In this document: positions 10,078-43,735 of the stretch, piece after piece
Layout: every line of letters begins with the position of its first letter
Numbering within the stretch: the stretch's first letter is position 1
Translations under genes and position numbers: made by a program
Notes under the pieces: generated by a model
What the model was told of the DNA's origin: nothing
Database searches by the model: none
Seen by the model: only the letters and a program-made list of their open reading frames with translations
Source: a virus
Lineage: Duplodnaviria; Caudoviricetes
Virus record (IMG/VR): IMGVR_UViG_3300032050_000168
Span: 1 to 56,468 of that record
Reading direction: 5' to 3' (one strand)
Length of the DNA stretch: 56,468 nucleotides

Positions 10078-10107
10078 CTGAATCCCGTGGTGTGTTTGTA
10101 AGATAAC

Positions 10108-11031: not shown

Positions 11032-11801
11032 AATTTATCTCTGTTTATTAAATAAAAATGTTCGTACGGATACTGCGGCAAATCTTCCATTACTTTGGTA
11101 TAAGGTTGTCCAAACATACCAACAATAGTAGAAGATTCAGTTTGTATATATTTTCCAGTTCCATGATTCCAAAATCCAATAAATTCTCTATTAAATCTTG
11201 AATATTTTCCAACGCCAGGTGTTATATTATCATCACGAACGTCGGATACAATATTATGAATTCCTGGTAAATAATACTCTGGGAATGCTTCATTATATTT
11301 GTCGATGTACCTATACGTTATGTCCCCGTCTTCTTCTCCAATACCCAGCAATCGTTCATCCAACCATCCTATATCAATCATTCCGTCCTTTGTATAACAT
11401 GCATGACTAAATGAACCATTGAATTTACACATTCGTGTGATGGACGAATTTATAGACTCAAACGTATCAAAAAAACTTTCATTTAAAATATCAACATCAT
11501 CGTTTAAACATAATAATAAATTAGTGGGTGAATGAATTACCAACGTATTGACTAATTTAGCGTATCCACGAAATGATGGGAAAAATATAGGATATACATT
11601 ATTTGTAGTTCCAATCAATTCCAATACCGATGTACGATACGTTTCATCAAATTCCGTATTATTTAGTCCATTTATTGCTACTAGTATAGGTATATTTTTC
11701 CTATATTCACGAATAGCTAATAATGTTTTCTTAAACATATCAAATCGTTTAGAAAACGTTGTAATACCAATACTATACGGCAAGATTGTTGTTTCTGACA
11801 T
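11028..11801 (-). CDS. GT-A fold (GT2-like) glycosyltransferase
   Basis: SIGITTF, LLCLNDDV (DxD-like), IGWLDERLLGIGEEDGD. Start moved to MSETT (11801) on the basis of an upstream AGAGAAG. Confidence 0.75.
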   Translation of the reverse strand: MSETTILPYSIGITTFSKRFDMFKKTLLAIREYRKNIPILVAINGLNNTEFDETYRTSVLELIGTTNNVYPIFFPSFRGYAKLVNTLVIHSPTNLLLCLNDDVDILNESFFDTFESINSSITRMCKFNGSFSHACYTKDGMIDIGWLDERLLGIGEEDGDITYRYIDKYNEAFPEYYLPGIHNIVSDVRDDNITPGVGKYSRFNREFIGFWNHGTGKYIQTESSTIVGMFGQPYTKVMEDLPQYPYEHFYLINRDKL

Positions 11802-12471
11802 ATTCTTCTCTATTAAAATATAAAATGTTTTCTCTGTCTTGAAAATGCGGTAGATGTAATGGCAACACACGATCCTCACTGACCCCGGTTCGTATGAATT
11901 TATAATTCCATCTATCCATCAAATGTCCATCTTCCCCTCCCCACGTAGTAAATTTTTCATCAAAAAATCCAATGTCTTTTATAGATTTGATTGATGTTAA
12001 ATGAAATCCACCGAATCCACCAACACATCCTTTTGTAAATACTAATGGATGTGTTCCGTGCGGATCAACTTGATCTAATGGTATATTTCCATCGTCAAGT
12101 TTTGCAAAATTAAAGAAAAACCCAATTTCATATGTTACGTTTGATGCGAGAGTGGCTAACGCATCCCATTGTGTCCGATGTATAAATACATCGCAGTCCA
12201 TCAAACAAATGTTATCTTCCTCTGGAAATGTATTTATTATTCCGTTAAGTTTTTCTGATCGTTTATATGTTCCAATTGGGTATGGAATATGTGTTGCGTC
12301 GTCAATTATTTTTTCTGGTGAATAGTCAAATATATTGGCAGTAGCGGGTACCGACTTACTGTTTAGATATCGTACCATATCCTTTAAATATGGCCACGTT
12401 AAGTGTACATTTCGTTCTCTGCTACTATTTTCTTGGCCATCTGTCCAAAAAGCCATGCAGAAATGTATCAT
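11773..12471 (-). CDS. GT-A glycosyltransferase with a GT7 (galactosyltransferase) C-terminal-like motif
   Basis: YKRSEKLN, LMDCDV (DxD), IGFFDEKFTTWGGEDG, HLPH. Confidence 0.75.
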   Translation of the reverse strand: MIHFCMAFWTDGQENSSRERNVHLTWPYLKDMVRYLNSKSVPATANIFDYSPEKIIDDATHIPYPIGTYKRSEKLNGIINTFPEEDNICLMDCDVFIHRTQWDALATLASNVTYEIGFFFNFAKLDDGNIPLDQVDPHGTHPLVFTKGCVGGFGGFHLTSIKSIKDIGFFDEKFTTWGGEDGHLMDRWNYKFIRTGVSEDRVLPLHLPHFQDRENILYFNREEYVRNNNLAV

Positions 12472-13391
12472 AACCTAATGGTTCCCGTTTCATAATGTTG
12501 AGTAAACCAAGAAATTGTTTGAGATAATCCGATTGGTAACTCTGTGTATTTTATAGGATATACTAGTTGGAGTTTACTCGTATCACTTGGTTTTCTTTCT
12601 TGTCCGTTATGTTGTGTACTATCTTCAAACACAATCTTTCCCGTGAAATTCATTTCCTTTGCAATTAGATGTACCACATCACGTATTTCGTACTGAGTCG
12701 GTGATGATACTACCAATGGTTCTACATCTTCATAATTAAATATTGCCCATGCAATAACTTTTGCTAAATCTTCGGCATAAATAAATTCACGATACACTTT
12801 TCCATTTCCCATCACATTTAATGGAGTATTATTTATTTTTGCCAAATAACATTTATGAATTAATGCAGGAATTACGTGAGCAGATTCTAAATTAAATTGA
12901 TCATATTTACCATATACATTTGTAGGTATTATGGTTGTCCATTTTTTATTATATTGTGTTTGATATGCCCGAGTTTGAACTTCTAACATTCTTTTTGCAT
13001 AAGCATATCCAAAATTTGAATCATGAGGTTCTCCATCGTGGATTTTATGTGGCTGTAATGGATACGTTGTTTTATCGGGAAATATGCAAGTTGACATCAT
13101 CCCTAGTAATCGGTTCACATTGTATTGATGAGCATATTGCAATACATACGTATTCATTATGACGTTTTGTTCGTAAAATCCTACGGGATCTCTACTATTA
13201 GCCATTACCCCACCAACCTTGGACGCTAAGTGAATAACATGTGTTGGATTGTATATAGAAAACATACTTTCTACATCAGTTTTATTTGTTAAATTAAATT
13301 GAGTAGACGATATGTAGTTGGCAGAGGGTAAATATTTCTGTAAGTTTCTACCCACTAAACCCGACCCCCCAGTTACCAATATTTTGTTCAT
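12468..13391 (-). CDS. fcl: GDP-L-fucose synthase (GDP-4-keto-6-deoxymannose epimerase/reductase)
   Basis: ILVTGGSGLVG, HLASKVGG, STCIFP, N.GYAYAKR, PTNVYG.YDQF....AHVIPALI, REFIYAEDLA. Confidence 0.9.
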   Translation of the reverse strand: MNKILVTGGSGLVGRNLQKYLPSANYISSTQFNLTNKTDVESMFSIYNPTHVIHLASKVGGVMANSRDPVGFYEQNVIMNTYVLQYAHQYNVNRLLGMMSTCIFPDKTTYPLQPHKIHDGEPHDSNFGYAYAKRMLEVQTRAYQTQYNKKWTTIIPTNVYGKYDQFNLESAHVIPALIHKCYLAKINNTPLNVMGNGKVYREFIYAEDLAKVIAWAIFNYEDVEPLVVSSPTQYEIRDVVHLIAKEMNFTGKIVFEDSTQHNGQERKPSDTSKLQLVYPIKYTELPIGLSQTISWFTQHYETGTIRL

Positions 13392-14629
13392 AGTTCTCCT
13401 GTCAACCGTTCACCCCATCCATGTTCTCTTGAGTGTGGCCACACAATCCATCGTTTTGGCTGGTCTAATGTGTGAAATATTCTCCAGAGTTTACAATATC
13501 CGGCGGAGTCGTTTTTCATCATCAAAATTTCTTGTTCATTGGCATCTTCTCTATGAATTTCTACCCCTTCTTTATTTTCAAATGCCACTGCCCATACATC
13601 ATAATCATTGTACGGTACCCATGATATTGGTATATCAATACAATGTTTGAATACACGTAGATATGGTTCTCCTGGAGGATTAGGAGGTTCTTTGTGATCT
13701 AACGTATATTGTTGCACAGATCGTGTATCAAATTTAATACCTGCATAATTTTCATAATCTTCAAGCGTTCTAATAGTTCCAAATCCAAAATCACCGAAAT
13801 CTTCTGCCGGATCATGTTCTCCGTCAATGCGGAGTAATCGTCTATTTCTTGCCAAAGAAGCATTATCCCAACGTCCCCATTCTGCTATATCATCCCACGA
13901 CTTTCGTGGACGATGTTCCCGAGAATATTCATGATATACTACTGGTTTATGAGGAGAAAACAAATCATAACCCCATGTATAGGCTCGGGCAGCAATAGAA
14001 ATTTCTTCGCCATGAAATAAATAATTGGGATCGTGAGGAACTTCTTTACAGAATTGTCCAAGGGTAAATCCAAAGTGTGCTGAATAGAATCGACTCGGAT
14101 ATGGAAGTGTTCTATTTTGCCAATCTGGAATTACGGATGGAATAAAAAATACTGCTCCCTGTGGCGTAAATCTGTCAAATGTCAAAAACCACGGATCTGT
14201 TGCTCTACCAGTAGGATCATTGTGTGGTTCGTAACTTGATACATATGCAGTCAGTAATGGCTTTTTGTGTCCTACTTTTTGTAAATCCTTTACCATTTTA
14301 ATTAGTGTATCATCCCAATCTTTTGCAAATCGGTGATGTGAATCTAACTGTAACGTGTAAGCTTCATCAGTCCAATGCTTTTGAATTTGGTATCGTGCCC
14401 AACACGTTCCTCTAGTTTGTAAATGAGGTATATCAAGAATTTTAAAACGAGCATCGTTTTTAAATTCATCTAACGTATCCCAATCATCCTCGGTTGCATG
14501 TTGCCACGCAATACAAAAACGTAAATTTTTGGGTTTCTTTGCATTTGCAATACAACTACGAATCGTTGGTAATAATTCTGGATCTCGGTATGCGGCAATT
14601 TGAATAAAAATGTTTTGATTCTTTTTCAT
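13388..14629 (-). CDS. GT60-type polypeptide GlcNAc transferase (Skp1 Gnt1 / trypanosome OGNT-like), copy 2
   Basis: IFIQIAAYRDPEL, GTCWAR, YTLQLDSHHRF..DWD, FHGEEISIAARAYTWGYDLF.P. Confidence 0.85.
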   Translation of the reverse strand: MKKNQNIFIQIAAYRDPELLPTIRSCIANAKKPKNLRFCIAWQHATEDDWDTLDEFKNDARFKILDIPHLQTRGTCWARYQIQKHWTDEAYTLQLDSHHRFAKDWDDTLIKMVKDLQKVGHKKPLLTAYVSSYEPHNDPTGRATDPWFLTFDRFTPQGAVFFIPSVIPDWQNRTLPYPSRFYSAHFGFTLGQFCKEVPHDPNYLFHGEEISIAARAYTWGYDLFSPHKPVVYHEYSREHRPRKSWDDIAEWGRWDNASLARNRRLLRIDGEHDPAEDFGDFGFGTIRTLEDYENYAGIKFDTRSVQQYTLDHKEPPNPPGEPYLRVFKHCIDIPISWVPYNDYDVWAVAFENKEGVEIHREDANEQEILMMKNDSAGYCKLWRIFHTLDQPKRWIVWPHSREHGWGERLTGEL

Positions 14630-15903
14630 ATGTTAAACTCTCCAGATAATCTAGTCATCCATCCTTTACTCAAACTATGAGGCCATACTATCCATTTTGC
14701 TGGTAGGTCGTCGTGATAAAAATTTCTCCAGATGTGTGAAAATTTATCTTGTTCATACGGAACACTTAAAATTCTCTGAATTTCCTGTTCATATGCGTCT
14801 TCTCTATGAATTTCTACCCCTTCTTTATTTTCAAATGCAATTACCCAAACATTATAATCATTTTCTGTAAATTCTGGTCTATGTACGTCTATACACATTC
14901 TATGGTATTTTGCCAATCCCTGTGCATGATATACTTCATCTATTGACACGGGAGGTAATTTCTTGGTAATCGTATCTCTATGTACTTGTCGTGTACTAAA
15001 CTTTAATCCCGCATACAATTCATATTGTTCTAATGATCTAACTTGTTTTTTTACTAATTTATTTGATGGTGAGATTACATCAATACCTAGTAAAGTTCTA
15101 TTATGTTTGTGGGATGTAGTATCTAATTCTTTCCAATCAGTATGGTCATCCCAATGTTTCTTTTTACCTTCTCGTGTATATTCATGCCAAATAACTGGTC
15201 TATGTGGAGCAAATAAATCATACCCCGCCATATACGCTCGTACAGACAGATTGATCTCTTCTCCATGAAAATAGTACGTGGGGTCATATTCCACTTCTTT
15301 ACAAAATTTCCCATCGGCAAAAATAAAATGACCCGAAATAAATCGTGACGGCATTGGACGATCTAGTTCTTTAAAATTATCTATGGTGTGCGGTAAAAAG
15401 TGTACGGGCCCTTCAGGAGCAAACCGGTCAAATTCCATAATCCACGGTATCATCATTCTACCAGCGGGATCGTTTTTTGGATCAAAACTGGGAAGATAGG
15501 AACTTAATAGTGGTTTTGGGCAATCTTTTGAACGAAGACTTTCCAGCATCTCAATAACTGTAGTATCCCATCCCTTACTAAACCTGTGATGGGAATCTAA
15601 CTGCATTGTATACGTTTCTTTATTATAGGCTTTATTTAGTTGATGTCTCGCCCAACACGGACCCTTCGCATCACGATAATCAATATCAATAATATCAAAA
15701 CGAGAATCATCTTTAAACTCGTCTAAGTTATCCCACTCTTCGTATGGGGAATGTTGCCAGGCAATACCAAATCGTAATCTATCAGGATGATCAGCATTTG
15801 CTAAACAATCCCGTAATGTATTTAATAATTCAGGATCTCGGTATGCGGCAATTTGTATATAAATCGTTGGATTAGAAACTTTTTTCTTTTTTCTTGGAGC
15901 CAT
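14626..15903 (-). CDS. GT60-type polypeptide GlcNAc transferase, copy 1
   Basis: IYIQIAAYRDPEL, GPCWAR, YTMQLDSHHRF..GWD, FHGEEINLSVRAYMAGYDLF.P; GAGGG SD. Confidence 0.85.
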   Translation of the reverse strand: MAPRKKKKVSNPTIYIQIAAYRDPELLNTLRDCLANADHPDRLRFGIAWQHSPYEEWDNLDEFKDDSRFDIIDIDYRDAKGPCWARHQLNKAYNKETYTMQLDSHHRFSKGWDTTVIEMLESLRSKDCPKPLLSSYLPSFDPKNDPAGRMMIPWIMEFDRFAPEGPVHFLPHTIDNFKELDRPMPSRFISGHFIFADGKFCKEVEYDPTYYFHGEEINLSVRAYMAGYDLFAPHRPVIWHEYTREGKKKHWDDHTDWKELDTTSHKHNRTLLGIDVISPSNKLVKKQVRSLEQYELYAGLKFSTRQVHRDTITKKLPPVSIDEVYHAQGLAKYHRMCIDVHRPEFTENDYNVWVIAFENKEGVEIHREDAYEQEIQRILSVPYEQDKFSHIWRNFYHDDLPAKWIVWPHSLSKGWMTRLSGEFNI

Positions 15904-33369: not shown

Positions 33370-34425
33370 TTATAATAGGTTAGGAAACAGTTTAAATAAG
33401 AATTGAATACTCCAAGTTCCAGTTCCGGATCCTATACTTAATGCTCGCAATCTTATATTATCTCCTATTCTAATAAGATTAAACGATAAATCTTCAGTAC
33501 TTCCTATATCTGTGTTAGAAACGTCGGTATATGTCGTAGTACTTCCGCTCCATGATCCTATGATGAATCCAGACCGAATTCCCGATGTTCTCTGAGCGGT
33601 ATATTCAATTGATACACCTGAAAAGCTCTGTACTGATATTGGTGGATCAATTACTCTGGTTTCGTCATATACTCCGGTGACTACCGACGAACTTAGATAC
33701 ACATTTGATGTATCTGATTTTACTTGAATTTGCGTTGACTGAATTGATGCGGTTACACTTGATGGAGTTATTATCTGATTGTTGATATACTCTACCGTTT
33801 GCACCGAACTTGACACAATTCCTGTCGGTTTATTAATAACCTCATTCCATCCAACGATAGCTCCACTTACATACGAAGCCGTTATTGCATATGACGAAGT
33901 TATTGCTTCTGTTACGGAACCCGTGATGGACGGGATAGTTGCCGAAGTTCCTACCGTTAGATTATTACCAACAAATAAATCATTTGATGCACTTAAATTA
34001 GTATATACCGAAGAAGCACTTGCCGCCACACTTAATGCAAATAATGCATATGACGCAGTATTTGCTGTATTAGAATTTAACGCAAGTGATGATGTAACTG
34101 CTCTTGTTGCAAAACTTGATGTAGTTGCTTTTAATGCGTATGAAGCACTGATTGTAGATTGTGCTGTTTGTACATATGAGGCAGTGTTTGCTGTGTCTGC
34201 TGTTTGTACATATGAAGCAGAATATGCAGATATAGCAATTGCAGGTAACGAGCCTGTTCTATATACTACCAAATCCGGTGGTTGTATTTCTACAGTATAG
34301 TTATTTCCCTGCTGAACATTGACACTTACATCAGGAAGTGCTAATGCAATTTTATTTGTGTCAGTATTTTCTCTGACAACAACCGTTATATTTGGTATTC
34401 CTAGATTAAGTGAACCACTCATCAA
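33370..34425 (-). CDS. fibre or decoration protein with hexapeptide ASYA repeats
   Basis: SASYVQ/TASYVQ/SASYAL repeats; C-terminal domain paralogous to that of 31177..33336. Confidence 0.7.
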   Translation of the reverse strand: MMSGSLNLGIPNITVVVRENTDTNKIALALPDVSVNVQQGNNYTVEIQPPDLVVYRTGSLPAIAISAYSASYVQTADTANTASYVQTAQSTISASYALKATTSSFATRAVTSSLALNSNTANTASYALFALSVAASASSVYTNLSASNDLFVGNNLTVGTSATIPSITGSVTEAITSSYAITASYVSGAIVGWNEVINKPTGIVSSSVQTVEYINNQIITPSSVTASIQSTQIQVKSDTSNVYLSSSVVTGVYDETRVIDPPISVQSFSGVSIEYTAQRTSGIRSGFIIGSWSGSTTTYTDVSNTDIGSTEDLSFNLIRIGDNIRLRALSIGSGTGTWSIQFLFKLFPNLL

Positions 34426-34881: not shown

Positions 34882-35370
34882 TTAGTAGTTGAGTACGCAG
34901 TAATCTGGTTGGATTGTTACGGTAAATTCTACTTGTTCATCTGCTCCCCAATCCATTTCAGCAAAATTAACTTCTGTAATTTGTGCTCCTTTAATGATCC
35001 ATTCTTCTACCTTATCACCTACTGGTCCAAGAACGTTGAGAGTTAAATCCTTTTTATAGAACTCAAGGTAACCATCACGGCCAGTTACTGATTCATGGTG
35101 AAGACGAACCCATTCCATCACTGCTTGTGCACCAGAAGGAACGATTGGATCATATAGTGTCATCTGCATGGTACCCCACTTACTTTTGCCCTTTACATAT
35201 CTTTGAACATTGATATGATCAAGTGGCTTTGCTTCTTGTGTTAATGTAGGACGAGCAACCTTTTTGACGATATATGAAGGAATTCCATCCATGTATAGGA
35301 TGAAACGATTCTTCATCTTTGGTTCAAATGCTGTGAAGAACAGCTCTTGTTCAGTTACTAGATTTGCCAT
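34882..35370 (-). CDS. tail tube protein (T4 gp19-like)
   Basis: FEPK..NRF, YVKGKSKW, EWVRLHHESVTGRDGY..FYKKD, LGPVGDKVEEW; adjacent to the sheath gene. Confidence 0.9.
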   Translation of the reverse strand: MANLVTEQELFFTAFEPKMKNRFILYMDGIPSYIVKKVARPTLTQEAKPLDHINVQRYVKGKSKWGTMQMTLYDPIVPSGAQAVMEWVRLHHESVTGRDGYLEFYKKDLTLNVLGPVGDKVEEWIIKGAQITEVNFAEMDWGADEQVEFTVTIQPDYCVLNY

Positions 35371-35458: not shown

Positions 35459-38113
35459 TTATGCCGTTGGGAATGTAGCGCCCGTTGGAAGTACGTTGAA
35501 ATCAAGGATGATGAATTCAGCGGTACGGGTTGGTTGGAGATAGAGTTGTCCGTAAAGGATATTTCTATCAATCAAGTCCGGTGTATTATTGGTTTCATCC
35601 ATAATGACACGGAATGCGTACAAACCAGAACGTTCTTGGACACTTGCCAAATATGGGTTGACGATGTTCAAGAAACGATTGCGTGTGGATTCTACGTTTT
35701 GTTCAAACACGAGGTAACGTGAAGCACTTGCAATATATTTCTTCACAGCAATTAACAACCGGCGGACATTGACACGATCAAGTGCTGATGGACGACGTTG
35801 TAGTGTCTTTTGACCCCACACACAGATGCCCTGTCCAGGGAACTGTGCGATTGGGTTAACCTTACCTTCATAGAGAGTATCACGACTTGCTTGTGGGAGA
35901 CGGACCTTCACACCCACTGCACTTGCAATACCACCACGGTTCAACCCTGCTGGTGCAAACCATTCTGCTGCAACGTTGTCGTTGTATGCATAGATTTCCG
36001 GAAGGATAACTGACGGTGGTACCCAAATTAATTTATTGGTATTAACATCAATTACTCTCAACCACGGATAATAAGTTGCTGCATAGTTACTATCAATTTC
36101 CCCTGCTTTTGCTGTTGCCGTTGCAAGTGTAGCATTTAATCCAGTCGTGTCCATGATGTAGAATGCGTCACCACGATCTTCACAAAGACTTAACGCTTCA
36201 TTTGCAACATATGAATGGAAATCATAGATAACACCAGGTAATACCAAGAGGTTAAAATCCCATTGATCTGGATTACTGATAGCGTTTAGTGCTTTCTTAT
36301 ATGCCTTTGATCCGGCTGCAACCGACGTTGATAAATCAAATCCTTGTGAATTATTTGACAATATGTCACCACCTAACTTAATATCACGTGCTGGATTTAG
36401 TCCGTCAAACCCGCCAAAGAACGGTACAGAAAATTTACGGTAAATGAACGAATTATCATCGGTAAGTGAAATTGATGCAGAGAACTGTGATGATGATCCA
36501 CTTGGAACTTCAACCAAATTTTCTAAGTTAAACGCAGTTCCAACTATAATTGGGTTGGTGTTATTTGGATCCGATACTGGATTTAAATACGATTCGTTTG
36601 TACCATTTGCTACAGAGAAATCCCATCCATAATAATATCTCTTATCAATAGACTCCGTAGTATATCCTTCCGTTGTACCACTAAGCCAACGTGATGTTAC
36701 ATAATTTGGTGATGCAAGATTTATTGCAGGTAGTCTTATACTTGATTCCAATGTTCCAAATCCAAATGGGAGAGCACTATCTGGAATTACCGAATCATTC
36801 ATTTCTACGTATACGTACTGTGAATTATTTGGGAAATCACCTTGATAATACATTTCACCCGTGACTTGATCTTCTGTTGGCGCACTATTACCAATCACTC
36901 GTGCAATATATTGTGGACTATCTGGGTCCAGTGTTAGATTATCGTATTGTTCAAGTATTTCTTGACGTGCATCCGTATCATCATATTTACGGATTACAAG
37001 AGAAAATGTTCCCCACGCATATTCAACATCGCTACTTGGTTTCATGTTTAACAAGGATACTTTAATTTCTCTGTTTGCACTGTTTCCATCACCCAATGTA
37101 TGAAGTTTAAATAGATCAACATTTAAATTTGCAATTGTTTGTGATTGAATCCAAGGTGTATGTGCGTTAGAATATCCCGCATCAAGAAAGTTTAATGCCG
37201 TACTGGACGTAGTTGCGGATACTATAACATCTTGAAATACCCCAGTTGATGTTTTTGGATATGTGGTTACTGTCGTAAGTGTTCCCGTTGAACTTGAACT
37301 TACGATAAACATGATATTTGATGCAGACGTTGCCGTATATTGTGTTAGTAACAATGAGGCAAAATTTACACCAGATCCAGTAACAGCTACGCTAGATAAC
37401 TTAGTAGTATCTAGATTGGAAAATGATGTAGTTGGTATAACATACTTAACAAGACTTCCCGTAGAAACACCAGCCGGAACGTCACTTGCATTCAATGATT
37501 GTGATGCAACTGATAATCCCCCTATAGTACCGTATGATCCTACTTCTGTAACTGCATCTGGGAATATTGCGTAGATATAGGAGTTTTTCGTTGTAACGGG
37601 ACTGTATCCCAGTAAATTTCCTAGATATCCATTTGAATCAGGATTGACACTCAATCCTGATTGGTTTGAAATATCCGTTCCTGCTGCAGTATCTACCGAT
37701 AATGTGAAACTAGTTCCAGATCCAGTTGCAGTAACACTGTTGATTGTATTCCCAGTACTACTTGGGTGGATAACTGCAAATAATTTATTTCCACCGGATC
37801 CTGACACATAAACAAGTGCGGGGATTGTGGTTGTATTACTGTATCCTTCCGTTCCAAGAACACGAACGATGGTTGCTACACCAGATTCACGTAGATAATT
37901 TTTTACCGTTAACCCTGTGTAGTGATTTGCATCGGCTTCACCAAAACGGGTAACATATTCTTGTTGACTTCTTACAATTGTCGGGATAAATGCTGGACCC
38001 TTTGGTGTTGGTCCAATAAATGCGCCCCCAATTTCACTGATACCCTGGGTTAAGAAACTTAAGTCTCTTTCCCGTGTGAAAACTCCAGGGGAAACAATTC
38101 TTTCATTTGCCAT
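35459..38113 (-). CDS. contractile tail sheath protein (T4 gp18-like)
   Basis: SPGVFTRERD, WFAPAGLNRG, VWGQKTLQ...SALDRVNVRRLLI, VFEQN, LQPTRTAEFI; GGAGG SD. Confidence 0.95.
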   Translation of the reverse strand: MANERIVSPGVFTRERDLSFLTQGISEIGGAFIGPTPKGPAFIPTIVRSQQEYVTRFGEADANHYTGLTVKNYLRESGVATIVRVLGTEGYSNTTTIPALVYVSGSGGNKLFAVIHPSSTGNTINSVTATGSGTSFTLSVDTAAGTDISNQSGLSVNPDSNGYLGNLLGYSPVTTKNSYIYAIFPDAVTEVGSYGTIGGLSVASQSLNASDVPAGVSTGSLVKYVIPTTSFSNLDTTKLSSVAVTGSGVNFASLLLTQYTATSASNIMFIVSSSSTGTLTTVTTYPKTSTGVFQDVIVSATTSSTALNFLDAGYSNAHTPWIQSQTIANLNVDLFKLHTLGDGNSANREIKVSLLNMKPSSDVEYAWGTFSLVIRKYDDTDARQEILEQYDNLTLDPDSPQYIARVIGNSAPTEDQVTGEMYYQGDFPNNSQYVYVEMNDSVIPDSALPFGFGTLESSIRLPAINLASPNYVTSRWLSGTTEGYTTESIDKRYYYGWDFSVANGTNESYLNPVSDPNNTNPIIVGTAFNLENLVEVPSGSSSQFSASISLTDDNSFIYRKFSVPFFGGFDGLNPARDIKLGGDILSNNSQGFDLSTSVAAGSKAYKKALNAISNPDQWDFNLLVLPGVIYDFHSYVANEALSLCEDRGDAFYIMDTTGLNATLATATAKAGEIDSNYAATYYPWLRVIDVNTNKLIWVPPSVILPEIYAYNDNVAAEWFAPAGLNRGGIASAVGVKVRLPQASRDTLYEGKVNPIAQFPGQGICVWGQKTLQRRPSALDRVNVRRLLIAVKKYIASASRYLVFEQNVESTRNRFLNIVNPYLASVQERSGLYAFRVIMDETNNTPDLIDRNILYGQLYLQPTRTAEFIILDFNVLPTGATFPTA

Positions 38114-38136
38114 ACGAATCCTCCAAATGGGTTATA

Positions 38137-38397
38137 TTATTCTGTTATTTCTCCGGTATCAAAATCAATATCACCGGTTCCATATTTTTGCTGCAACTTT
38201 TCGTATAAAACCCTTTCTTTTTCTTGGAATTCTGTAAACCGATTTTCTTGCGTTTCAACAAGTAGGGATAACTCTTTTAGATTATTTTCTAGTATTTTTT
38301 TACTTAAATGAAGTTCACCCAGTGTGGTTATTATTTCCAAGTATGTTTCCCGAAGACTCTTCAATTCTTGTAATTCTTCATCCAAAACCTTTTTCAT
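38137..38397 (-). CDS. small coiled-coil protein
   Basis: Heptad-rich, ends KYGTGDIDFDTGEI; ATG 38397 chosen from SD spacing. Confidence 0.7.
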   Translation of the reverse strand: MKKVLDEELQELKSLRETYLEIITTLGELHLSKKILENNLKELSLLVETQENRFTEFQEKERVLYEKLQQKYGTGDIDFDTGEITE

Positions 38398-38427
38398 AAA
38401 CACTCTCTTTTAAAGTTCTATACATAT

Positions 38428-38435
38428 CATAAATA
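38428..38435 (-). promoter_or_regulatory. variant late promoter motif TATTTATG
   Basis: 31 nt upstream of the ATG at 38397; would head the sheath transcript. Confidence 0.5.
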
Positions 38436-38456
38436 TACAAAACAAATCTCAAAATA

Positions 38457-39251
38457 TCATTTATTTATTGGACCCGTGATGACTTCGGTGTCAAATACAA
38501 CCTTTTTTGGCGAGTATTGCAGTTTTGTGGTTTGTTCTCGGTTGCCGTTTTTATCTAACGTACTCTGTGGAAGTATATATGCTTTTACGTCAACGGTAAA
38601 TTTACTTCTGACCAATCGTGAACTATCCGCCGGTAATTGAACCGTATTTTCAAATTGACCAATCTTTGAAATAAATTTATAGTTATTTATCTCGCCCCAA
38701 TATTCGTTGCTTTCAAACGACAAATTTTCTATTACTTTATTCATTTGTTCTGTGAATTCTGTCCACACAACCCCTTCATATGTTATATCATAAAAATCTG
38801 GCATGACCGATGAGTGATACACCTGACTAGGAGTTATGCCATTTACTAACGCAAACCTGTCATAAATATTTCTTGAGTTCCATCCGGTTTTAAATGTATA
38901 TGTTTGATATTTGTTTGTTGGATTATTGATGCTATTTTCTTTTAGTCCTGTTCGTGCAATCATCATGATAGGTAACATAATCATCCCGTTCTTATCTCGC
39001 AACGCTCCATCTTGTTGTGCACTTTTCCATCGTTCTGGATTTCCATATATGACTGGAACGGGTATTTGTTTACCTTGTTGTGACACCACTGGTTTTATAT
39101 TATTTTGCAGATACCGTAATATTGCAGTATCTATTGTTTGTAATCCAATCTCAACTTGTTTACTCACTCCCGGTTCGTGTTTTGTATCAAACCCACGATT
39201 ATATCTGTTACGTACTGTAGAATTGTTTACGTCAAATGTTGGACGGTTCAT
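38457..39251 (-). CDS. tail completion / sheath terminator protein (T4 gp15-like)
   Basis: VPVIYGNPERW, LP.M...RTG, P.FYDITYE..VWT...EQMN.VIE; synteny. Confidence 0.7.
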   Translation of the reverse strand: MNRPTFDVNNSTVRNRYNRGFDTKHEPGVSKQVEIGLQTIDTAILRYLQNNIKPVVSQQGKQIPVPVIYGNPERWKSAQQDGALRDKNGMIMLPIMMIARTGLKENSINNPTNKYQTYTFKTGWNSRNIYDRFALVNGITPSQVYHSSVMPDFYDITYEGVVWTEFTEQMNKVIENLSFESNEYWGEINNYKFISKIGQFENTVQLPADSSRLVRSKFTVDVKAYILPQSTLDKNGNREQTTKLQYSPKKVVFDTEVITGPINK

Positions 39252-39709
39252 ATATGCGTATCCTCAAGATTAATATTACTTTTACGAGTTAAGTGCGATT
39301 GGCATATAATGGCTTGATTATATTCTGGTCTACCGGCAATTAGTTGTGCCTCGTTAATATTATCAATTGTATAATAATTTTCATTATATTTGATGATATC
39401 TCCAACATCAGGATATACATTTACATCTTGTAATATTTGTCTTACAAACCTAAATTCAACGTTTTTTTGGGTAATATCATATCCAAATCCATCGTCAGTT
39501 GCTGCAGTCTTTTTTGGGTATTTAATTAATCCATTCAAACTAATGCCTTTGTAATATGTTTTTTCAGTTGATTCCCCGTATATGTTTACGTTGACTACAT
39601 CATTTATTATTTTATATAATATGACTTCAACGTCAATAACATCAACTACGATTTCTCGGTTGATATGTTGAAAAAATTGATAATCTCTTGCAGAAACGAA
39701 TCTTGGCAT
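39248..39709 (-). CDS. neck / head-closure protein (T4 gp14-like)
   Basis: NIYGES..K, P.VGDII; position between the gp13-like and gp15-like genes. Confidence 0.7.
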   Translation of the reverse strand: MPRFVSARDYQFFQHINREIVVDVIDVEVILYKIINDVVNVNIYGESTEKTYYKGISLNGLIKYPKKTAATDDGFGYDITQKNVEFRFVRQILQDVNVYPDVGDIIKYNENYYTIDNINEAQLIAGRPEYNQAIICQSHLTRKSNINLEDTHI

Positions 39710-39710
39710 G

Positions 39711-40895
39711 TTATCCTATAAAAATTTGAGTAGGAACGTGTACAAAAATACTTTGCATTGCTTGTGCATTTTCCATCTGTTTTTTCAACTGTGCTTGCAT
39801 ACCAGTTTGTTCTAAGGTTTCACGAATTTCTTCTATCAATCCTTTCTTTTCTTCAGACGCTTCTCGGCGAAGTGTTTCTCCATCCATTCGTATTGTTGCG
39901 TCTGGTATTGGAATTTCTTGATATTTTGATCGTACGTTACCTAGTAATTCTTTTGCCAAAGCTAGTGTGTACCGATAAATCCACAACCGTCCAATGCTAT
40001 TGATATTTTTATATTGAATGTTTTCATATGGAATATTAGATAAATCTGAAACCACACTATTTTCTGATCCCGATTGAATTACTCCGCCAATTCCATTATT
40101 AGACGATCCATTTTGTTTATCACCTACTACCATATAATCAAACCAAATAGTTGTATTTTTTGTAAATATGGGGGTAAATTTAACAACGTTATTGGATACA
40201 CTAAAACTATATTGACTTTTACGAATCATATCATTCACTTCAATTGCTTGAATACGGAGTAAATCTTCGTATGCAGGCATCATCACGAATGTCACGGGCG
40301 GTGAATATCCATCAAATCCAAATTCACTCATCAAGTTAGTTAATCCAAGACCCGTCGTTGCAAATGGGTCATAGTAACGAGCAATGGCAGGTGGCATATA
40401 GTGATAGATACGACGAATTTCTATAGCAGACCCGCTTTCATATGGATCTGCCCACAATGACTTCAAATCATATGTTTGTTGATACGCAGACGCACTGATA
40501 TATCCTCGTTTTATTGTAACATTTCCACCGCTTTCTGCTTCTGTTCCGTATTGAGCGGATAATTTAACCAATTGAGGTAGTGGCGTTGCTAATATATTTC
40601 TTTGAGTAATATTAATACTTGTGTTCATTCCCTGCAAAGCAAACATATGTTCACGTGCATTGAATTGATTTACCTGATTACTGTATGTTGTAATTGCTTC
40701 CTCTAAGCATGCATAAATTTGCTTATGTGTTAATTCTACATCAACGACAGGATATCCCAGTCGTCTAGCAACAAACGTGGCAACTTCTGGCGCTTCTTGT
40801 TGAAATTCCACATCCCCGTCATAAAAACCAAACGGAGTTGCATTAACAGGACTAATTCGTGTTTCTTCAAATATTATAGGTTCACGATTCTGCAT
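39711..40895 (-). CDS. neck protein (T4 gp13-like)
   Basis: RRLGYPVVDVEL...QIYACLEEA, W..RYTLALAKELLG.VRSKY..IP. Confidence 0.8.
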   Translation of the reverse strand: MQNREPIIFEETRISPVNATPFGFYDGDVEFQQEAPEVATFVARRLGYPVVDVELTHKQIYACLEEAITTYSNQVNQFNAREHMFALQGMNTSINITQRNILATPLPQLVKLSAQYGTEAESGGNVTIKRGYISASAYQQTYDLKSLWADPYESGSAIEIRRIYHYMPPAIARYYDPFATTGLGLTNLMSEFGFDGYSPPVTFVMMPAYEDLLRIQAIEVNDMIRKSQYSFSVSNNVVKFTPIFTKNTTIWFDYMVVGDKQNGSSNNGIGGVIQSGSENSVVSDLSNIPYENIQYKNINSIGRLWIYRYTLALAKELLGNVRSKYQEIPIPDATIRMDGETLRREASEEKKGLIEEIRETLEQTGMQAQLKKQMENAQAMQSIFVHVPTQIFIG

Positions 40896-40918
40896 ACATG
40901 CCCTCTATTAGAGACATA

Positions 40919-40926
40919 TATAAATA
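40919..40926 (-). promoter_or_regulatory. putative late promoter motif TATTTATA
   Basis: 24 nt upstream of the ATG at 40895 and downstream of the capsid terminator. Confidence 0.65.
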
Positions 40927-40962
40927 TCAAATACCACATGTTAACCATGACTTATAGATAAT

Positions 40963-40987
40963 AAAAAGGGTGGTCCGAAGACCACCC
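40963..40987 (-). terminator. rho-independent terminator with a C(UUCG)G tetraloop after the major capsid gene
   Basis: GGGTGGTC-TTCG-GACCACCC-TTTTT. Confidence 0.95.
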
Positions 40988-41014
40988 AATTTATTAACCA
41001 CGTTACGAATTGTA

Positions 41015-42589
41015 TTAGACTTGTGCAAGCTTGTCGATGTAGATCTTGCCGAAGAATTCTGGACGGACGATCTTCTTTGCGTAACGTGTCATCACACCAC
41101 GGCGTGGCGTGAAGTTGTTTGGATCGTACACAAGTGGTGTCATGATCAATGGAATGTATGGGGCATAGACTGCACCAGTTTCCAAGAATTGTGAACCACG
41201 GAAGCCCATAAGAAGAACATTTTCCTTCATATATGGGTTCTTGTATACGGTGTAACGGTTTTGGAATGAACCAATCTTGGTTACACCAGCAGCAAATTCC
41301 ATCTTGTCACCATCTGTTCCAGCTTGGAAGCCAGGGATGGTTTCGAGAATTGTTGCAACCGTTGGTGAAACCACTGCAAAGTTTGCACCACCACGCATTG
41401 TGAGTTGGTGGATACGGTTACTGACCTTTTGCATCTTCTGACCAAGTGTTTGGAACCAGGTCATGTTGGTCCATGCTGTTCCTGTGAAGGATGAAGCGGC
41501 AAATGCTGAACCGTTCCATGTTGAACCGATTTCTGCTGACCAGTATTCGGTTGTTTGTGCTGCATTGATCAACATGTCAAGAATTTCAAGGTCAATTTCT
41601 GTTGCAACATAGTCTGACAACATACTGGTCAATTCTGCTTCTGCATCAACTGAGTGGTATGCATTCAAGTCTTGTGCAAGTTCTGGTGACCATACCGCCT
41701 TCAACTTACGTGTCTTGGCAACGATGGTTTCACTCTTGAGTTCCAAATCAATTTGTGGAATGTTCAAATCAGTTGAACCATCACGATCTTCAAAATCACC
41801 ACGTGTTGTATCGGTTGGTTGCTTGACCCATGTTACTGCTTGGAGAGGGGCAACACCACCGAATGAACTATTGACGATGAAGGTTACGTTTGTTCCATCA
41901 TACTTGGTAAATTCAGGAAGAACCAATGCACCAAAATCAATTCCTGAACCACTTGGTACGAATGTACGTACTGCTAACCAATCAGCATTTGGTAATACAC
42001 CTGCACTTACTGTGTATTTCTTCAATGAACCGGTTGCAACGTATGTATCGTTGAAATTTACATCAGCAAATGAAACCGATGCTGAAGTTACTGCAAGTGA
42101 ACTTGTTGTTGCGTTGTTAATGGAGTATCCAAACCGTCCTGCACCATACAAACCACCCGCATCCGTGTTTCCAAATCCACCCCACGTTGAACTTGCAGCT
42201 GTTCCATAGAGTGATGTAGCAGACGTTTGTCCGTTACGTGTGTTGCCATACTTGAAATCCATGTAGAAAACAAGTCCGGCTGGGAGGTTCATTGGTTGAA
42301 CTGAGACGAAGTTCTTACTTGCAATGCTTCCGAAAACCTTACGAACTAATGGAAGTGCAACACCTGCCCATTGTTCACCACTTGTTCCGGCTGAGTTTGT
42401 CTTACTGTTTTCTTGGAGAAGTTGCGTTGCTTGGTTTTCCAACATAACCGCCATACCTTGACGATCATATCCCTTCAACCCTTCCAAAAGACCTGAACGT
42501 TCCCACTTACCTGCTAATTTGCGGGTTTGATCAATGACGTGCTTATGTGCACTACCTGCTTCGTTGATAAATTCTTGTACATCTGACAT
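41015..42589 (-). CDS. major capsid protein (T4 gp23-like)
   Basis: LPLVRKVF, VQPM..P.GLVFY.DF, AKTRKLKAVWSPELAQDLNAYHSVDAEAEL, YAPYIPL, F.P..GVMTRYA; AGGAG SD. Confidence 0.97.
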   Translation of the reverse strand: MSDVQEFINEAGSAHKHVIDQTRKLAGKWERSGLLEGLKGYDRQGMAVMLENQATQLLQENSKTNSAGTSGEQWAGVALPLVRKVFGSIASKNFVSVQPMNLPAGLVFYMDFKYGNTRNGQTSATSLYGTAASSTWGGFGNTDAGGLYGAGRFGYSINNATTSSLAVTSASVSFADVNFNDTYVATGSLKKYTVSAGVLPNADWLAVRTFVPSGSGIDFGALVLPEFTKYDGTNVTFIVNSSFGGVAPLQAVTWVKQPTDTTRGDFEDRDGSTDLNIPQIDLELKSETIVAKTRKLKAVWSPELAQDLNAYHSVDAEAELTSMLSDYVATEIDLEILDMLINAAQTTEYWSAEIGSTWNGSAFAASSFTGTAWTNMTWFQTLGQKMQKVSNRIHQLTMRGGANFAVVSPTVATILETIPGFQAGTDGDKMEFAAGVTKIGSFQNRYTVYKNPYMKENVLLMGFRGSQFLETGAVYAPYIPLIMTPLVYDPNNFTPRRGVMTRYAKKIVRPEFFGKIYIDKLAQV

Positions 42590-42610: not shown

Positions 42611-43735
42611 TTAGATAATTCCTGCGAGTTCTTGTAAACGACGAGCTACCGTATTTTCAACGATAACTTCTTTCTTTGGTGCCGTTGTTGGAGTTGCCTT
42701 AGAGGCTAATCCTTCGGTAACAACTTTCTTGCGTGATGTGTTGAACGTCTTTGCTGCTGTTGCAAGATTTTCAACTAATGCTGTGTATACTAACTTCACT
42801 TCACGAACCGTTGTTGCACGATCAAATGATTCCACAATGCGAATCTTTTGTTCGTTGGTCAAAGAGTCCTTACGGAACATCTTGTTTGTGAAGAGTAACT
42901 TAGCATTTAATAAGTTAACTTCTTGTAAACGGCCTCGGAGAATATTGACTGCTTCCCGATATTGTGCCAATTCGTTCTTGAGTCCCGCAAGTTTAGCAGC
43001 CATTGCTTTTTTGGCGTCATGAGCATCTGGCTTTGCGCCCATTTCGTCTTCGTCGGCTTCAAGTTCTGCAAGAATTGCTTCAAGATCAAGTTCTTCTTCA
43101 CCTTCTTCACCAGCTTCCATATCGTCTTCAACGACTGGTGCTTTGGCAAACTTTGATGGATCTGCATCTTGAGTTTCGTGTGAAACTTCATTTTTCTTCC
43201 ATCCTTCCTTCTTCATTTCTTCCTCTGCTTCTGGAGCCTTTTCAGCTTCTGGAGCTTCTTCCTTCTCTTCTGCTTCGTCTTCGTGTTCTGCTTCTGAAAG
43301 ACGTGCAATATCTTCTTCTAATTCCTTGATTACTTCGTCAAGGTCAAAATCACTTTCGGACCAATCATCGTACCAATCCGTGTGACTATCTTCTTTATTT
43401 TCACCACCGTCGCCAATTGCCGATGTGTCAAATGCATCATCAGATGGTTCCTTGTTATCGGAAGCGCCAACTGTTGATGAATCGGCTGGGAAGTCTGCAC
43501 CTCCTTCTGCCTCAGCGTCTTGGTGTGGAAGTTCTTTTACTGATTCTTCTTTCACTTCTTCCTTTTCTTCCTCGCCTTCCATTGCTTCAACACGAAGACG
43601 ACGGGCAATCATATCACGAATTTGTGGTGTAATTGCTTCTTCTAAAACGAGCTTTGCGTTCGCAACAGCAGTTTCACGAACTGCTTCTGCGTCGGCAATG
43701 GCTTCTTTTAAAAGCTTGTTGGTAATTTGTGCCAT
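42611..43735 (-). CDS. prohead scaffolding protein (T4 gp22-like)
   Basis: Very acidic middle, L.EVNLLNAKLLF.NK, C-terminal RRLQELAGI; directly upstream of the capsid gene. Confidence 0.8.
   Translation of the reverse strand: MAQITNKLLKEAIADAEAVRETAVANAKLVLEEAITPQIRDMIARRLRVEAMEGEEEKEEVKEESVKELPHQDAEAEGGADFPADSSTVGASDNKEPSDDAFDTSAIGDGGENKEDSHTDWYDDWSESDFDLDEVIKELEEDIARLSEAEHEDEAEEKEEAPEAEKAPEAEEEMKKEGWKKNEVSHETQDADPSKFAKAPVVEDDMEAGEEGEEELDLEAILAELEADEDEMGAKPDAHDAKKAMAAKLAGLKNELAQYREAVNILRGRLQEVNLLNAKLLFTNKMFRKDSLTNEQKIRIVESFDRATTVREVKLVYTALVENLATAAKTFNTSRKKVVTEGLASKATPTTAPKKEVIVENTVARRLQELAGII

Follow-up and report, generated by a model that had tools for sequence, protein, structure and literature searches.

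A tail sheath insert that appears to derive from the major capsid protein I-domain of a Far-T4-type myophage

Introduction

The accretion of extra domains by tail sheath proteins is well known, and to our knowledge it is almost never possible to tell where such domains came from. Can a domain of the phage head come to reside in the tail? The question is raised by a stretch of viral DNA of 56,468 nucleotides from a metagenome (the window, i.e., the whole stretch that was analyzed), in which an earlier note, made from the sequence alone, had aligned part of the sheath with part of the major capsid protein (MCP) and proposed that a surface domain was transplanted between the two proteins. The window is part of a Far-T4-type myophage; of the named phages, those closest to it are Flavobacterium phage immuto, Microcystis phage Mel-JY01, and Rhodothermus phage RM378. 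The proposed transplant is supported, and a direction, from MCP to sheath, can now be added to it. As a whole, we consider it likely that the MCP insertion domain (I-domain) was copied once into the sheath, where it is now a polymorphic, folded accessory surface domain.

The sheath and capsid genes

The tail sheath gene (35459..38113, minus strand; 884 amino acids [aa]; P0001) is identified by matches to Pfam Phage_sheath_1 (PF04984; E = 1e-11, 45.4 bits versus a cut-off of 31.4) and Phage_sheath_1C (PF17482; E = 3.2e-11, 43.6 bits versus a cut-off of 26.9), to PHROG 23 (tail sheath; 8.9e-73), and, in its C-terminal part, to T4 gp18 (2.6e-41). The tail tube gene (34882..35370, minus strand; PHROG 4542, 1.1e-25) lies directly downstream. 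About 2.9 kb away, on the same strand, is an MCP gene of the gp23 type (41015..42589, minus strand; 524 aa; P0002), the product of which matches Pfam Gp23 (PF07068; 249.5 bits versus a cut-off of 24.4, E = 9.6e-74, residues 72 to 513), PHROG 138 (major head protein; 7.7e-70), and T4 gp23 (phmmer, 7.7e-31). Scanned in full against Pfam at E values up to 0.1, the two proteins matched the sheath and Gp23 families alone.

The peptides quoted in the earlier note (37253-37516 and 41822-42097) are located at these positions on the minus strand, within the sheath and MCP genes, respectively, and alignments of both proteins place them, as it had described, in variable regions between conserved cores. 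The sheath insert comprises residues 187 to 296 (37226..37555, minus strand) and is homologous to the MCP I-domain. In an alignment of 52 distinct sheaths it is an in-frame insertion of ∼100 to 110 residues with clean edges.

The corresponding part of the MCP lies where T4 gp23 has its I-domain and linkers. Residues 118 to 266 fall between the blocks aligned to residues 25 to 69 and 172 to 413 of mature T4 gp23, and the segment occupies the T4 I-domain site, at the position equivalent to the E-loop, with the conserved N-terminal block on one side and the core of the P and A domains on the other. The I-domain comprises residues 158 to 262 (41804..42118, minus strand). In full-length T4 gp23, linker 1 of the I-domain spans aa 132 to 160, and the I-domain forms protrusions on the capsid surface and rests on the neighboring subunit, as described in the available text of PMC9546572. 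Sequence similarity between the MCP domain and the T4 I-domain itself was not detected. The MCP model has a mean pLDDT of only 50, and at that confidence its C-terminal half matched T4 gp23 chains (Foldseek E of ∼6e-6, probability 1.00) and residues ∼304 to 523 gave VIA Z scores of 10.5 to 6uzc and 9.2 to 1yue; the MCP is therefore predicted, from the model, to carry HK97-like A and P domains resembling those of the solved T4 gp23/gp24 structures. The I-domain is the sole confidently folded part of this model (mean pLDDT of 64 to 86 in 10-residue blocks).

Evidence for a common origin of the segments

The similarity of the two segments is highly significant. The count made by hand in the earlier note, 28 identities in 75 aligned positions, was reproduced exactly, and the similarity also withstood composition correction, the failure of which the note would have taken as refutation: composition-adjusted BLASTP aligned sheath residues 196 to 295 (37229-37528, minus strand) with MCP residues 161 to 268 (41786-42109, minus strand) with 36 of 108 positions identical and 57 of 108 positive (49.3 bits, E = 3e-10). 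Smith-Waterman alignment of the segments scored 135, compared with a mean of 34.3, a standard deviation of 6.2, and a maximum of 71 for composition-keeping shuffles; none of 2,000 shuffles scored as high as the real pair (Gumbel p = 7e-10). With the full-length proteins, the alignment scored 143, versus a shuffle maximum of 81 (n = 300).

Comparisons of families gave a stronger signal. Alignment of five sheath inserts with 31 MCP domains by hhalign gave a probability of 99.4% (E = 3e-21, 88 columns), and 13 alignment columns, including the loop motif SGSG-x-(D/N)-F, are conserved across the sheath and MCP sets. With a profile built from the five sheath inserts alone as query, the only nonrepetitive matches among 1.84 billion representative proteins were two MCP fragments, with library-wide E values of 2.1e-9 and 1.4e-6; three repeat proteins (P0005, P0008, and P0009) were rejected as spurious, their scores being sums of 6 to 13 weak stretches. 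The same sheath-only profile found the MCP I-domain in all five large related records, three of which lack the sheath insert. On these sequence comparisons, the sheath insert can be assigned to the MCP I-domain family of this phage group. A hidden Markov model built from the I-domains of four named relatives gave the sheath insert an E value of 1.5, yet it recovered the MCP of the window at 5.7e-7.

Other carriers of the domain were found neither among the 357 open reading frames of the window nor elsewhere in the record, and a 90%-complete relative contained no third carrier. When residues 187 to 296 were compared with 5.8 billion proteins by a word-based method, only the sheath's own cluster and one other sheath of 880 aa (62% identity) came up; either the insert is rare or it lies outside the reach of that tool. 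In the ESM Atlas, the insert matched nothing but clusters lacking names. Duplication within the sheath was considered and rejected, as segments 96 to 186 and 297 to 420 are unlike the insert (hhalign probability of 1% or less). Weak matches between sheath residues 91 to 201 and MCP residues 133 to 244 (E of ∼0.1) were seen in L016, L018, L050, and L052; the idea that a resident sheath domain is itself I-domain-like was dropped (hhalign probability of 0.2%).

Predicted fold

The two segments were modeled in independent AlphaFold2 runs, one from a sheath-only and the other from an MCP-only alignment. The model of the sheath insert, from five sheath sequences (pLDDT of 77, pTM of 0.69), has strands at residues 195 to 203, 221 to 227, 239 to 247, 266 to 272, and 278 to 286 and a helix at 251 to 254 (full-protein numbering); that of the MCP domain has strands at 158 to 162, 189 to 195, 207 to 214, 234 to 240, and 249 to 256 and a helix at 219 to 222. 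The predicted folds, named in the earlier note as a means of checking the claim, thus agree in the order of their secondary-structure elements: five strands with a short helix between strands 3 and 4, all of which coincide in the BLAST register.

No clear structural relative of the insert model was found by Foldseek in the PDB (best E = 0.82) or BFVD (best E = 0.37) or by VIA-align among 48,161 chains (best Z = 5.6, CusB). Neither segment model significantly matched the T4 gp23 I-domain or any other solved fold; the insert model matched no T4 chain, and T4 chains matched the MCP model over residues ∼300 to 524 only. Rank 10 in BFVD was a 523-residue entry, the length of the RM378 MCP, at a nonsignificant E value of 0.72 (TMq of 0.45). 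Weak matches to ZneB (3lnn) and Helix pomatia agglutinin (2ce6/2ccv) were common to the insert and MCP models and are circumstantial.

Distribution and direction of transfer

The I-domain (∼105 residues) is present in all 35 distinct MCPs compared, including that of the distant phage RM378 (36% overall identity). The insert is found in 5 of 52 distinct related sheaths (6 of 73 full-length sheaths), so that most related sheaths lack it, as the earlier note had asked to be checked; the sheaths of Mel-JY01, LR756508, and RM378 are also without it, and that of immuto was not scored because its alignment at the site is too uncertain. Because the domain is universal in the MCPs but present in few sheaths, the MCP was probably the donor, and an origin of the insert as an MCP-to-sheath copy is supported by distribution and homology together. 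Between sheaths with and without the insert, the flanks are collinear with 80 to 87% nucleotide identity, and the insert is the sole large gap.

The five sheath copies form one clade (support of 100/100). The carrier sheaths do not: the AU test rejects their monophyly (p = 8.65e-5), and at least four changes between presence and absence are required on the sheath backbone tree. Because the copies form one clade and the carriers do not, the history suggested is a single copying event from MCP to sheath, with the insert now polymorphic for presence and absence. In the domain tree, the sheath clade is nested, weakly (80/86), among the in-group MCP domains; its placement outside them is not rejected (AU p = 0.37). 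From one carrier pair to another, dN of the insert relative to that of the backbone varies little (1.9 to 2.6), which is about as compatible with an old, vertically inherited insert lost many times as with lateral spread. One check asked for in the earlier note gave a negative answer: the insert does not covary with the MCP insert of the same genome, as the carrier's own MCP ranked only 13th, 23rd, and 7th of 31 by identity.

We propose that, in the ancestor of one sub-clade, ∼0.3 kb coding for the I-domain entered the sheath gene as an in-frame copy, landing after residue 186 in a variable, peripheral part of the protein. Copying would have occurred only once, followed by rapid divergence to the present ∼35 to 44% identity with MCP domains. 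The insert may since have been spread or removed by homologous recombination, or lost precisely and repeatedly, giving a presence/absence polymorphism among collinear phages with DNA 80 to 87% identical. What persists would be an expressed, folded domain under purifying selection.

Other origins of the similarity can be weighed against this copy. Chance or shared composition might be suspected, as both segments are beta-strand surface regions rich in Ser and Thr (35.5% in the insert versus 19.3% in the whole sheath, and 23.8% in the I-domain versus 16.8% in the whole MCP), but the composition-adjusted E value, the shuffles, and the library-wide E values of the MCP fragments refute this, and the equally Ser/Thr-rich sheath segment 96 to 186 gave nothing with hhalign; the probability that remains is negligible. 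A copy from sheath to MCP, with the domain born in the sheath, has nothing in its favor but the symmetry of pairwise similarity and is contradicted by the distribution, with the domain in every MCP, that of RM378 included, and missing from 47 of the 52 distinct sheaths; we regard it as very improbable. Alternatively, both proteins might have independently taken up a promiscuous third-party domain, neither gene being the donor. Small beta domains, Ig-like ones included, are known to pass from one structural protein of a phage to another, and the extra domains of sheaths are mostly Ig-like (available text of PMC9230969); the unrejected placement of the sheath clade outside the in-group MCP domains is also compatible with this view. 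However, no third carrier was detected in 1.84 billion representatives, the window, or five large related records, no Pfam family, Ig-like or other, was found in the region at E values up to 0.1, and every relative has its MCP domain at the ancestral site of the T4-type I-domain. The sheath copies, moreover, are 35 to 44% identical to in-group MCP domains versus 15 to 28% to out-group ones, and independent uptake is improbable. A gp24-like paralogue as donor was sought in the five large related records and none was found.

Comparison with known systems

The window MCP is a Gp23 member with its domain at the same chain position as the I-domain of T4 gp23/gp24, but that domain has no sequence or significant structural match to the T4 one, and the available text of the T4 papers does not mention a second I-domain copy in the tail sheath. 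[quoted passage not shown] Accessory sheath domains are positioned away from the tube, and large phages have more of them (PMC9230969 and PMC3004832, available text). Unlike for these, a donor can be named here, the phage's own capsid protein; the available text of the sheath survey describes most extra domains as Ig-like and names no capsid-derived one (PMC9230969), and the insert matches no Ig-like Pfam model (e.g., Big_2, I-set, or FN3) at E values up to 0.1. Ig-like domains of Hoc, major tail proteins, and some capsid proteins are similarly small, beta-rich, dispensable virion-surface modules that move between structural genes, with the same proposed roles in adhesion and stability (PMC9230969, available text, quoting other work). 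In contrast, the domain of the window is outside those families by sequence and occurs in just two proteins of a single phage group, without further carriers.

In line with the earlier note, no description of a domain common to an MCP and a sheath was found in the literature searched. The insert, absent from most close relatives, is best read from its sequence as a head-to-tail domain transfer, with the phage's own capsid protein as apparent donor and a unique copy event. It would be a clean example of virion proteins gaining modules by duplication between genes of one genome, and the models suggest that a capsid I-domain may fold and be maintained away from the capsid lattice. Alleles that have the domain and alleles that lack it occur naturally in nearly identical backgrounds, and these matched sheath pairs could be used to probe the roles of peripheral sheath domains.

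Selection and possible function

The insert is under purifying selection. Its dN/dS was 0.19, 0.28, 0.28, and 0.16 in four carrier pairs, versus 0.06 to 0.15 for the rest of the gene; the value of 0.19 for the close pair L009/L010 was obtained at a dS of 0.28. The insert evolves ∼2-fold faster than the sheath backbone, and none of the six carriers has a disrupted reading frame.

Judging from its place in the chain, the insert would protrude on the outer face of every sheath subunit. Residues 88 to 345 of T4 gp18 (domains I and II) are solvent exposed, with domain I protruding (PMC3004832, available text), and extra sheath domains are generally away from the tube and nonessential (PMC9230969, available text). 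We infer that the insert is dispensable for assembly and contraction and is an accessory surface module. The most likely of its putative roles are lateral contacts bracing the extended sheath, which would parallel the bracing of capsomers by the I-domain, or weak adhesion or docking.

The earlier note had gone further, suggesting a shared docking site for decoration fibers or a glycosylation target. On this view, head and tail would display the same binding surface, and one partner (a decoration protein, retracted fiber, or glycosyltransferase) would recognize both. Conservation of the SGSG-x-(D/N)-F loop among 13 columns in both sets would suit such a partner, as would the binding of retracted long tail fibers by the outer sheath domain I of T4 (PMC3004832, available text) and, given a Ser/Thr-rich insert, the sugar-related and other modifying enzymes encoded among the tail genes of the window (two glycosyltransferases, an epimerase, and a carbamoyltransferase). 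Both ideas are nevertheless weakened: the copies are only ∼35% identical, the 13 shared columns look like core or turn positions, insert and MCP domain do not covary within a genome, and the analysis yielded no candidate gene for a partner. Hoc of T4 binds gp23 at residues 326 to 344 and not at the I-domain (PMC10385173, available text). A link between glycosyltransferases and the insert was rejected, as the enzymes occur in carriers and noncarriers alike (two of three records without the insert have them). Common recognition of head and tail is therefore a rather doubtful proposal, and we hold only tentatively that a shared surface and a patchy insert could amount to a switchable tail-surface phenotype traded by recombination among coinfecting phages. 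It is unlikely, too, that the insert is a functionless, nearly neutral passenger on an exposed loop that is being lost. Its absence from close relatives and its rate, about twice that of the backbone, could be read in this way, but the dN/dS values of 0.16 to 0.28 in four carrier pairs, L009/L010 included, the intact frame in six carriers, and the confidently predicted fold argue against it. The exception is the copy in L011, which is possibly decaying, because it has a 10-residue deletion and a dN/dS of 0.54 to 0.74.

Genes and relatives of the window

The window, with an estimated completeness of 26% for the 56,468 bases of its IMG/VR record, carries an ordinary head-and-tail module of terminase, portal, prohead protease, acidic scaffold-like protein, major capsid protein (MCP), adaptor, sheath, tube, and fiber-related proteins; all genes of the sheath-MCP region lie on the minus strand. 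The tail sheath (35459-38113, minus; 884 aa) scores above the cut-offs of the Pfam families Phage_sheath_1 and Phage_sheath_1C and matches PHROG 23 (8.9e-73); its C-terminal part matches T4 gp18 (2.6e-41). The MCP (41015-42589, minus; 524 aa) is of the gp23 type (Pfam Gp23, 9.6e-74; PHROG 138; T4 gp23, 7.7e-31). By MCP, the closest named phage is Flavobacterium phage immuto (54.9% identity), with uncultured phage LR756508 (52.4%), Microcystis phage Mel-JY01 (51.1%), and Rhodothermus phage RM378 (36.2%) also among the closest. We take RM378 to be the cultivated reference phage of the Far-T4 group. It is mentioned in the accessible part of a paper on “Far-T4 phages” (PMC4360716).

Two other genes encode proteins of biased composition. 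A very acidic, Glu/Ala-rich protein of 374 aa without a PHROG match (42611-43735, minus) is encoded between the region of the prohead protease and the MCP gene, and position and composition suggest a putative scaffold protein. Two genes downstream of the tube, with a 117-aa open reading frame (ORF) between, is a Ser/Thr/Ala-rich protein of 351 aa (33370-34425, minus) with repeated motifs TASYVQTA and SSYA.TASY and no PHROG match at 1e-5; it may be a fiber or surface decoration.

Homology of the sheath and capsid segments

The earlier note had claimed, from the sequence alone, that sheath and MCP have a domain in common. Both peptides that it aligned lie where it had placed them, and its manual count, 28 identical residues over 75 aligned positions, was reproduced exactly. 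BLASTP with composition adjustment aligns sheath residues 196 to 295 with MCP residues 161 to 268 (36/108 identical, 49.3 bits, E 3e-10). The two segments reach a Smith-Waterman score of 135, which none of 2,000 shuffles attained (mean 34.3, SD 6.2, maximum 71), so the proposed comparison with shuffled sequences gives a significant result. Three additional tests are independent of this pairwise alignment. A profile of the five sheath inserts (window sheath residues ∼187 to 296; 37226-37555, minus) matches a profile of 31 MCP domains over 88 columns with a probability of 99.4% and an E value of 3e-21. When a profile built from the five sheath inserts only was run over 1.84 billion representative proteins at E values up to 0.001, five matches were obtained, and the two that consist of a single stretch are MCP fragments of this phage group (P0006, 2.1e-9; P0007, 1.4e-6). 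The same sheath-only profile picked up the MCP domain in all five large related records, three of which lack the sheath insert. Because BLASTP, shuffling, profile-profile, and sheath-only profile searches agree, the similarity is homology rather than composition, despite the Ser/Thr richness of both segments (35.5% in the insert and 23.8% in the MCP domain), and the claim of a common domain holds.

The other three profile matches are long tandem-repeat proteins whose scores are the sum of 6 to 13 weak stretches; they were taken as spurious.

Two blocks of the window MCP align with mature T4 gp23 (residues 73 to 117 with T4 25 to 69, and 267 to 504 with T4 172 to 413), and the segment common to the sheath falls between them. 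In T4 gp23 the same stretch holds the insertion domain (I-domain) and its two linkers, and by this position the MCP segment (residues 158 to 262) is assigned as a T4-type I-domain. According to the accessible text of one study, the T4 I-domain forms the surface protrusions of the capsid, is joined by long linkers that replace the HK97 E-loop, and rests atop a neighboring subunit of the same capsomer, which it reinforces (PMC9546572). The segment is present in all 35 distinct full-length MCPs aligned (31 from the window and the related IMG/VR loci, hereafter the in-group, and 4 from named relatives) and is the most variable part of the MCP, with an in-group pairwise identity of 47.5% (median; minimum, 26.5%).

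The MCP alignment contains a second polymorphic indel directly after the I-domain, just past window MCP residue 268. It is a Gly-rich stretch of about 12 to 13 residues (e.g., NPLRGSGTSTGIDAG) found in 6 of the 35 distinct MCPs (those of IMG/VR loci L009, L026, L036, L024, L047, and L044) and absent from that of the window; two of the six loci (L009 and L036) also have the sheath insert.

Predicted fold and selection

The AlphaFold2 model of the insert, made from five sheath-only sequences, is a compact, mostly beta domain (pLDDT 77, pTM 0.69). The model of the full MCP, for which 26 MCP-only sequences were used, is of poor quality as a whole (pLDDT 50), with residues 158 to 256 the best-predicted part (means of 64 to 86 over 10-residue blocks). 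The two predictions, which have no input sequence in common, show an identical order of elements that coincide in the BLAST register: strands at sheath residues 195 to 203, 221 to 227, and 239 to 247 (MCP 158 to 162, 189 to 195, and 207 to 214), a helix at 251 to 254 (219 to 222), and strands at 266 to 272 and 278 to 286 (234 to 240 and 249 to 256). Comparison of the predicted folds, a check that the earlier note had named, thus gives agreement at the level of element order. The insert model has no significant match among solved structures and predicted viral structures. The T4 gp23 I-domain and the window MCP domain are alike in chain position, but T4 gp23 and gp24 match the MCP model over residues about 300 to 524 only.

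The reading frame of the insert is open in all six carrier genes, that is, sheath genes with the insert. Its dN/dS is 0.19 between L009 and L010 (dS 0.28) and 0.16 to 0.28 in three more distant pairs, in which dS is saturated; values for the rest of the sheath gene are 0.06 to 0.15. The insert is thus under purifying selection, though less strongly so than the sheath core, which is what one would expect of an accessory domain that is exposed. The exception is the L011 copy (L011:3198-3476), with a dN/dS of 0.54 to 0.74 versus 0.15 for the rest of its sheath. This copy lacks about 10 residues, is 39 to 48% identical to the other sheath copies, and may be under relaxed selection or decaying.

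Distribution of the insert

A scan of IMG/VR gave 501 matched stretches, 499 of them sheath relatives, from which the 80 best loci were taken. Eight of these were dropped because their sheaths are truncated at the N terminus; the remaining 72, with the window, gave 52 distinct full-length sheaths. In their alignment the insert is a clean block with well-aligned flanks. Among these sheaths from the best 80 loci, the insert is present in 6 of 73 (window, L009, L010, L011, and L012/L036; 5 of 52 distinct), and the earlier note's question of whether related sheaths lack it is answered by the other 47 distinct sequences, all without it. It is also absent from the sheaths of Mel-JY01, LR756508, and RM378; the immuto alignment is too uncertain at the insert site for a call.

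The DNA of carriers is collinear with that of the nearest noncarriers over 5.6 to 8.6 kb upstream and 2.7 to 2.9 kb downstream. L009 differs from noncarrier L047 (80% nucleotide identity) by about 309 nt of extra DNA with about 20 nt of filler, and L036 differs from noncarrier L020 (86 to 87%) by about 340 nt with about 40 nt of filler. In all four pairs compared (these two, L009/L026, and L036/L043), the insert is the sole large gap in the stretch that runs from the MCP gene to shortly beyond the sheath. Of 39 genomes with both genes in full length, own sheath and own MCP match significantly by BLASTP in 4, all carriers (window, L009, L012, and L036; E 1e-11 to 3e-10); in the other 35 the best E value is 0.009 or worse.

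One sheath, that of L045 (L045:1588-4023), is neither the short nor the long form: it measures 812 aa from stop to stop, with several small additions close to the variable N-terminal domain, and is without the I-domain insert.

Origin and patchy presence

The earlier note had proposed a transplant “to or from the sheath”; a transplant is upheld, and the distribution gives its direction as MCP to sheath. Since the domain is universal in the MCPs and rare and derived in the sheaths, we take the MCP to be the donor. A tree built from 40 domain sequences unites the five sheath copies in one clade (100/100) on a long stem of 1.18 substitutions per site; they therefore have one origin. This clade is placed among in-group MCP domains at 80/86, with a position outside not rejected by an AU test (p 0.37). 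Sheath copies are 35 to 44% identical to the nearest in-group MCP domains versus 15 to 28% to those of the four named relatives, and these identities point to a donor within this subgroup. The co-variation of insert and same-genome MCP domain that the earlier note had listed for checking is not seen: the own-genome MCP is never the closest to a sheath copy, ranking 13th, 23rd, and 7th of 31, and nothing therefore suggests that the two copies co-vary or undergo gene conversion.

An internal duplication within the sheath was excluded, as segments 96 to 186 and 297 to 420 are unlike the insert or the MCP domain (probability of 1% or less). No other carrier of the domain was found among the 357 ORFs of at least 50 aa in the window (next best E 0.03, a 54-aa ORF) or in the five large related records, which include one of 90% completeness. 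Nor did these records (G001 to G005, behind L009, L036, L072, L029, and L049) yield a gp24-like MCP paralogue, and the vertices of these phages may be built from the MCP itself or an unrelated protein.

When the insert columns are left out of the sheath tree, at least four changes, forced by strongly supported branches, are needed to account for the five carriers, and a single carrier clade is rejected by an AU test (lnL difference 426, p 8.65e-5). A single origin with scattered carriers therefore implies lateral spread by homologous recombination or repeated loss; by our count on the tree, a single gain basal to the two clades involved would require about 7 to 8 losses. Insert dN is a near-constant multiple of backbone dN over carrier pairs (2.6 for L009-L010, 2.3 for window-L009, 2.4 for window-L036, and 1.9 for L009-L036), which fits an old insert diverging alongside its backbone no less well than it fits recent transfers. 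For this reason the insert is described as a presence/absence polymorphism, spread and loss being alike possible. Replacement of the insert by insert-free alleles through recombination would explain how precise the losses are.

It is already known that sheaths gain peripheral domains and that small beta domains move between structural proteins of phages. The accessible literature yielded no capsid I-domain reused in a sheath and no domain sharing between MCP and sheath; supplementary models (e.g., those of PMC9230969) might hold some. An extra I-domain attached through E-loop-equivalent linkers and sitting on a neighboring subunit is described, in the accessible text of PMC9546572, as previously seen in T4 only. 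In the present case the donor is clear, the event is single, and alleles of both kinds, insert-bearing and insert-free, occur naturally.

Probable position on the virion and possible function

T4 gp18 is nested, with domain I (98 to 188) inside domain II (88 to 97 and 189 to 345) inside domain III; in the accessible text, domains I and II are solution exposed, and domain I protrudes, takes no part in contacts between sheath subunits, and binds both the baseplate and the long tail fibers in their retracted state (PMC3004832). A survey of 112 sheath proteins, as far as accessible, places additional domains away from the tube, finds them not essential for contraction, and suggests roles in adhesion, appendage attachment, or stability (PMC9230969). 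The insert comes after residue 186, just past an 87-residue variable segment of the window sheath that starts at the point (T4 residue 100) up to which the N-terminal part aligns weakly with T4 gp18. From this position relative to T4 gp18, we infer that the insert would add a further outward-facing domain to each sheath subunit.

Our first guess is that the insert would provide extra lateral bracing of the extended sheath, because the capsid domain from which it derives acts by resting on a neighboring subunit; weak adhesion or docking would be the second. The earlier note had suggested that a single partner recognizes both head and tail copies. An SGSG-x-D/N-F loop is conserved and common to both, but the identity between sheath and MCP copies is low, they do not co-vary, no candidate partner was found, and the window's glycosyltransferase genes also occur in relatives without the insert (homologues in four of the five large related records, with and without it), which makes such a shared partner improbable. 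These genes belong to a sugar-modifying block (7486-15903, minus) among the tail and fiber genes, comprising a Nol-like carbamoyltransferase (7486-10077, minus), a nucleotide-sugar epimerase (12468-13391, minus), and two paralogous glycosyltransferases (13388-14629 and 14626-15903, minus; both PHROG 24687, about 1e-149). Judged from this gene content, glycosylation of the virion is possible.
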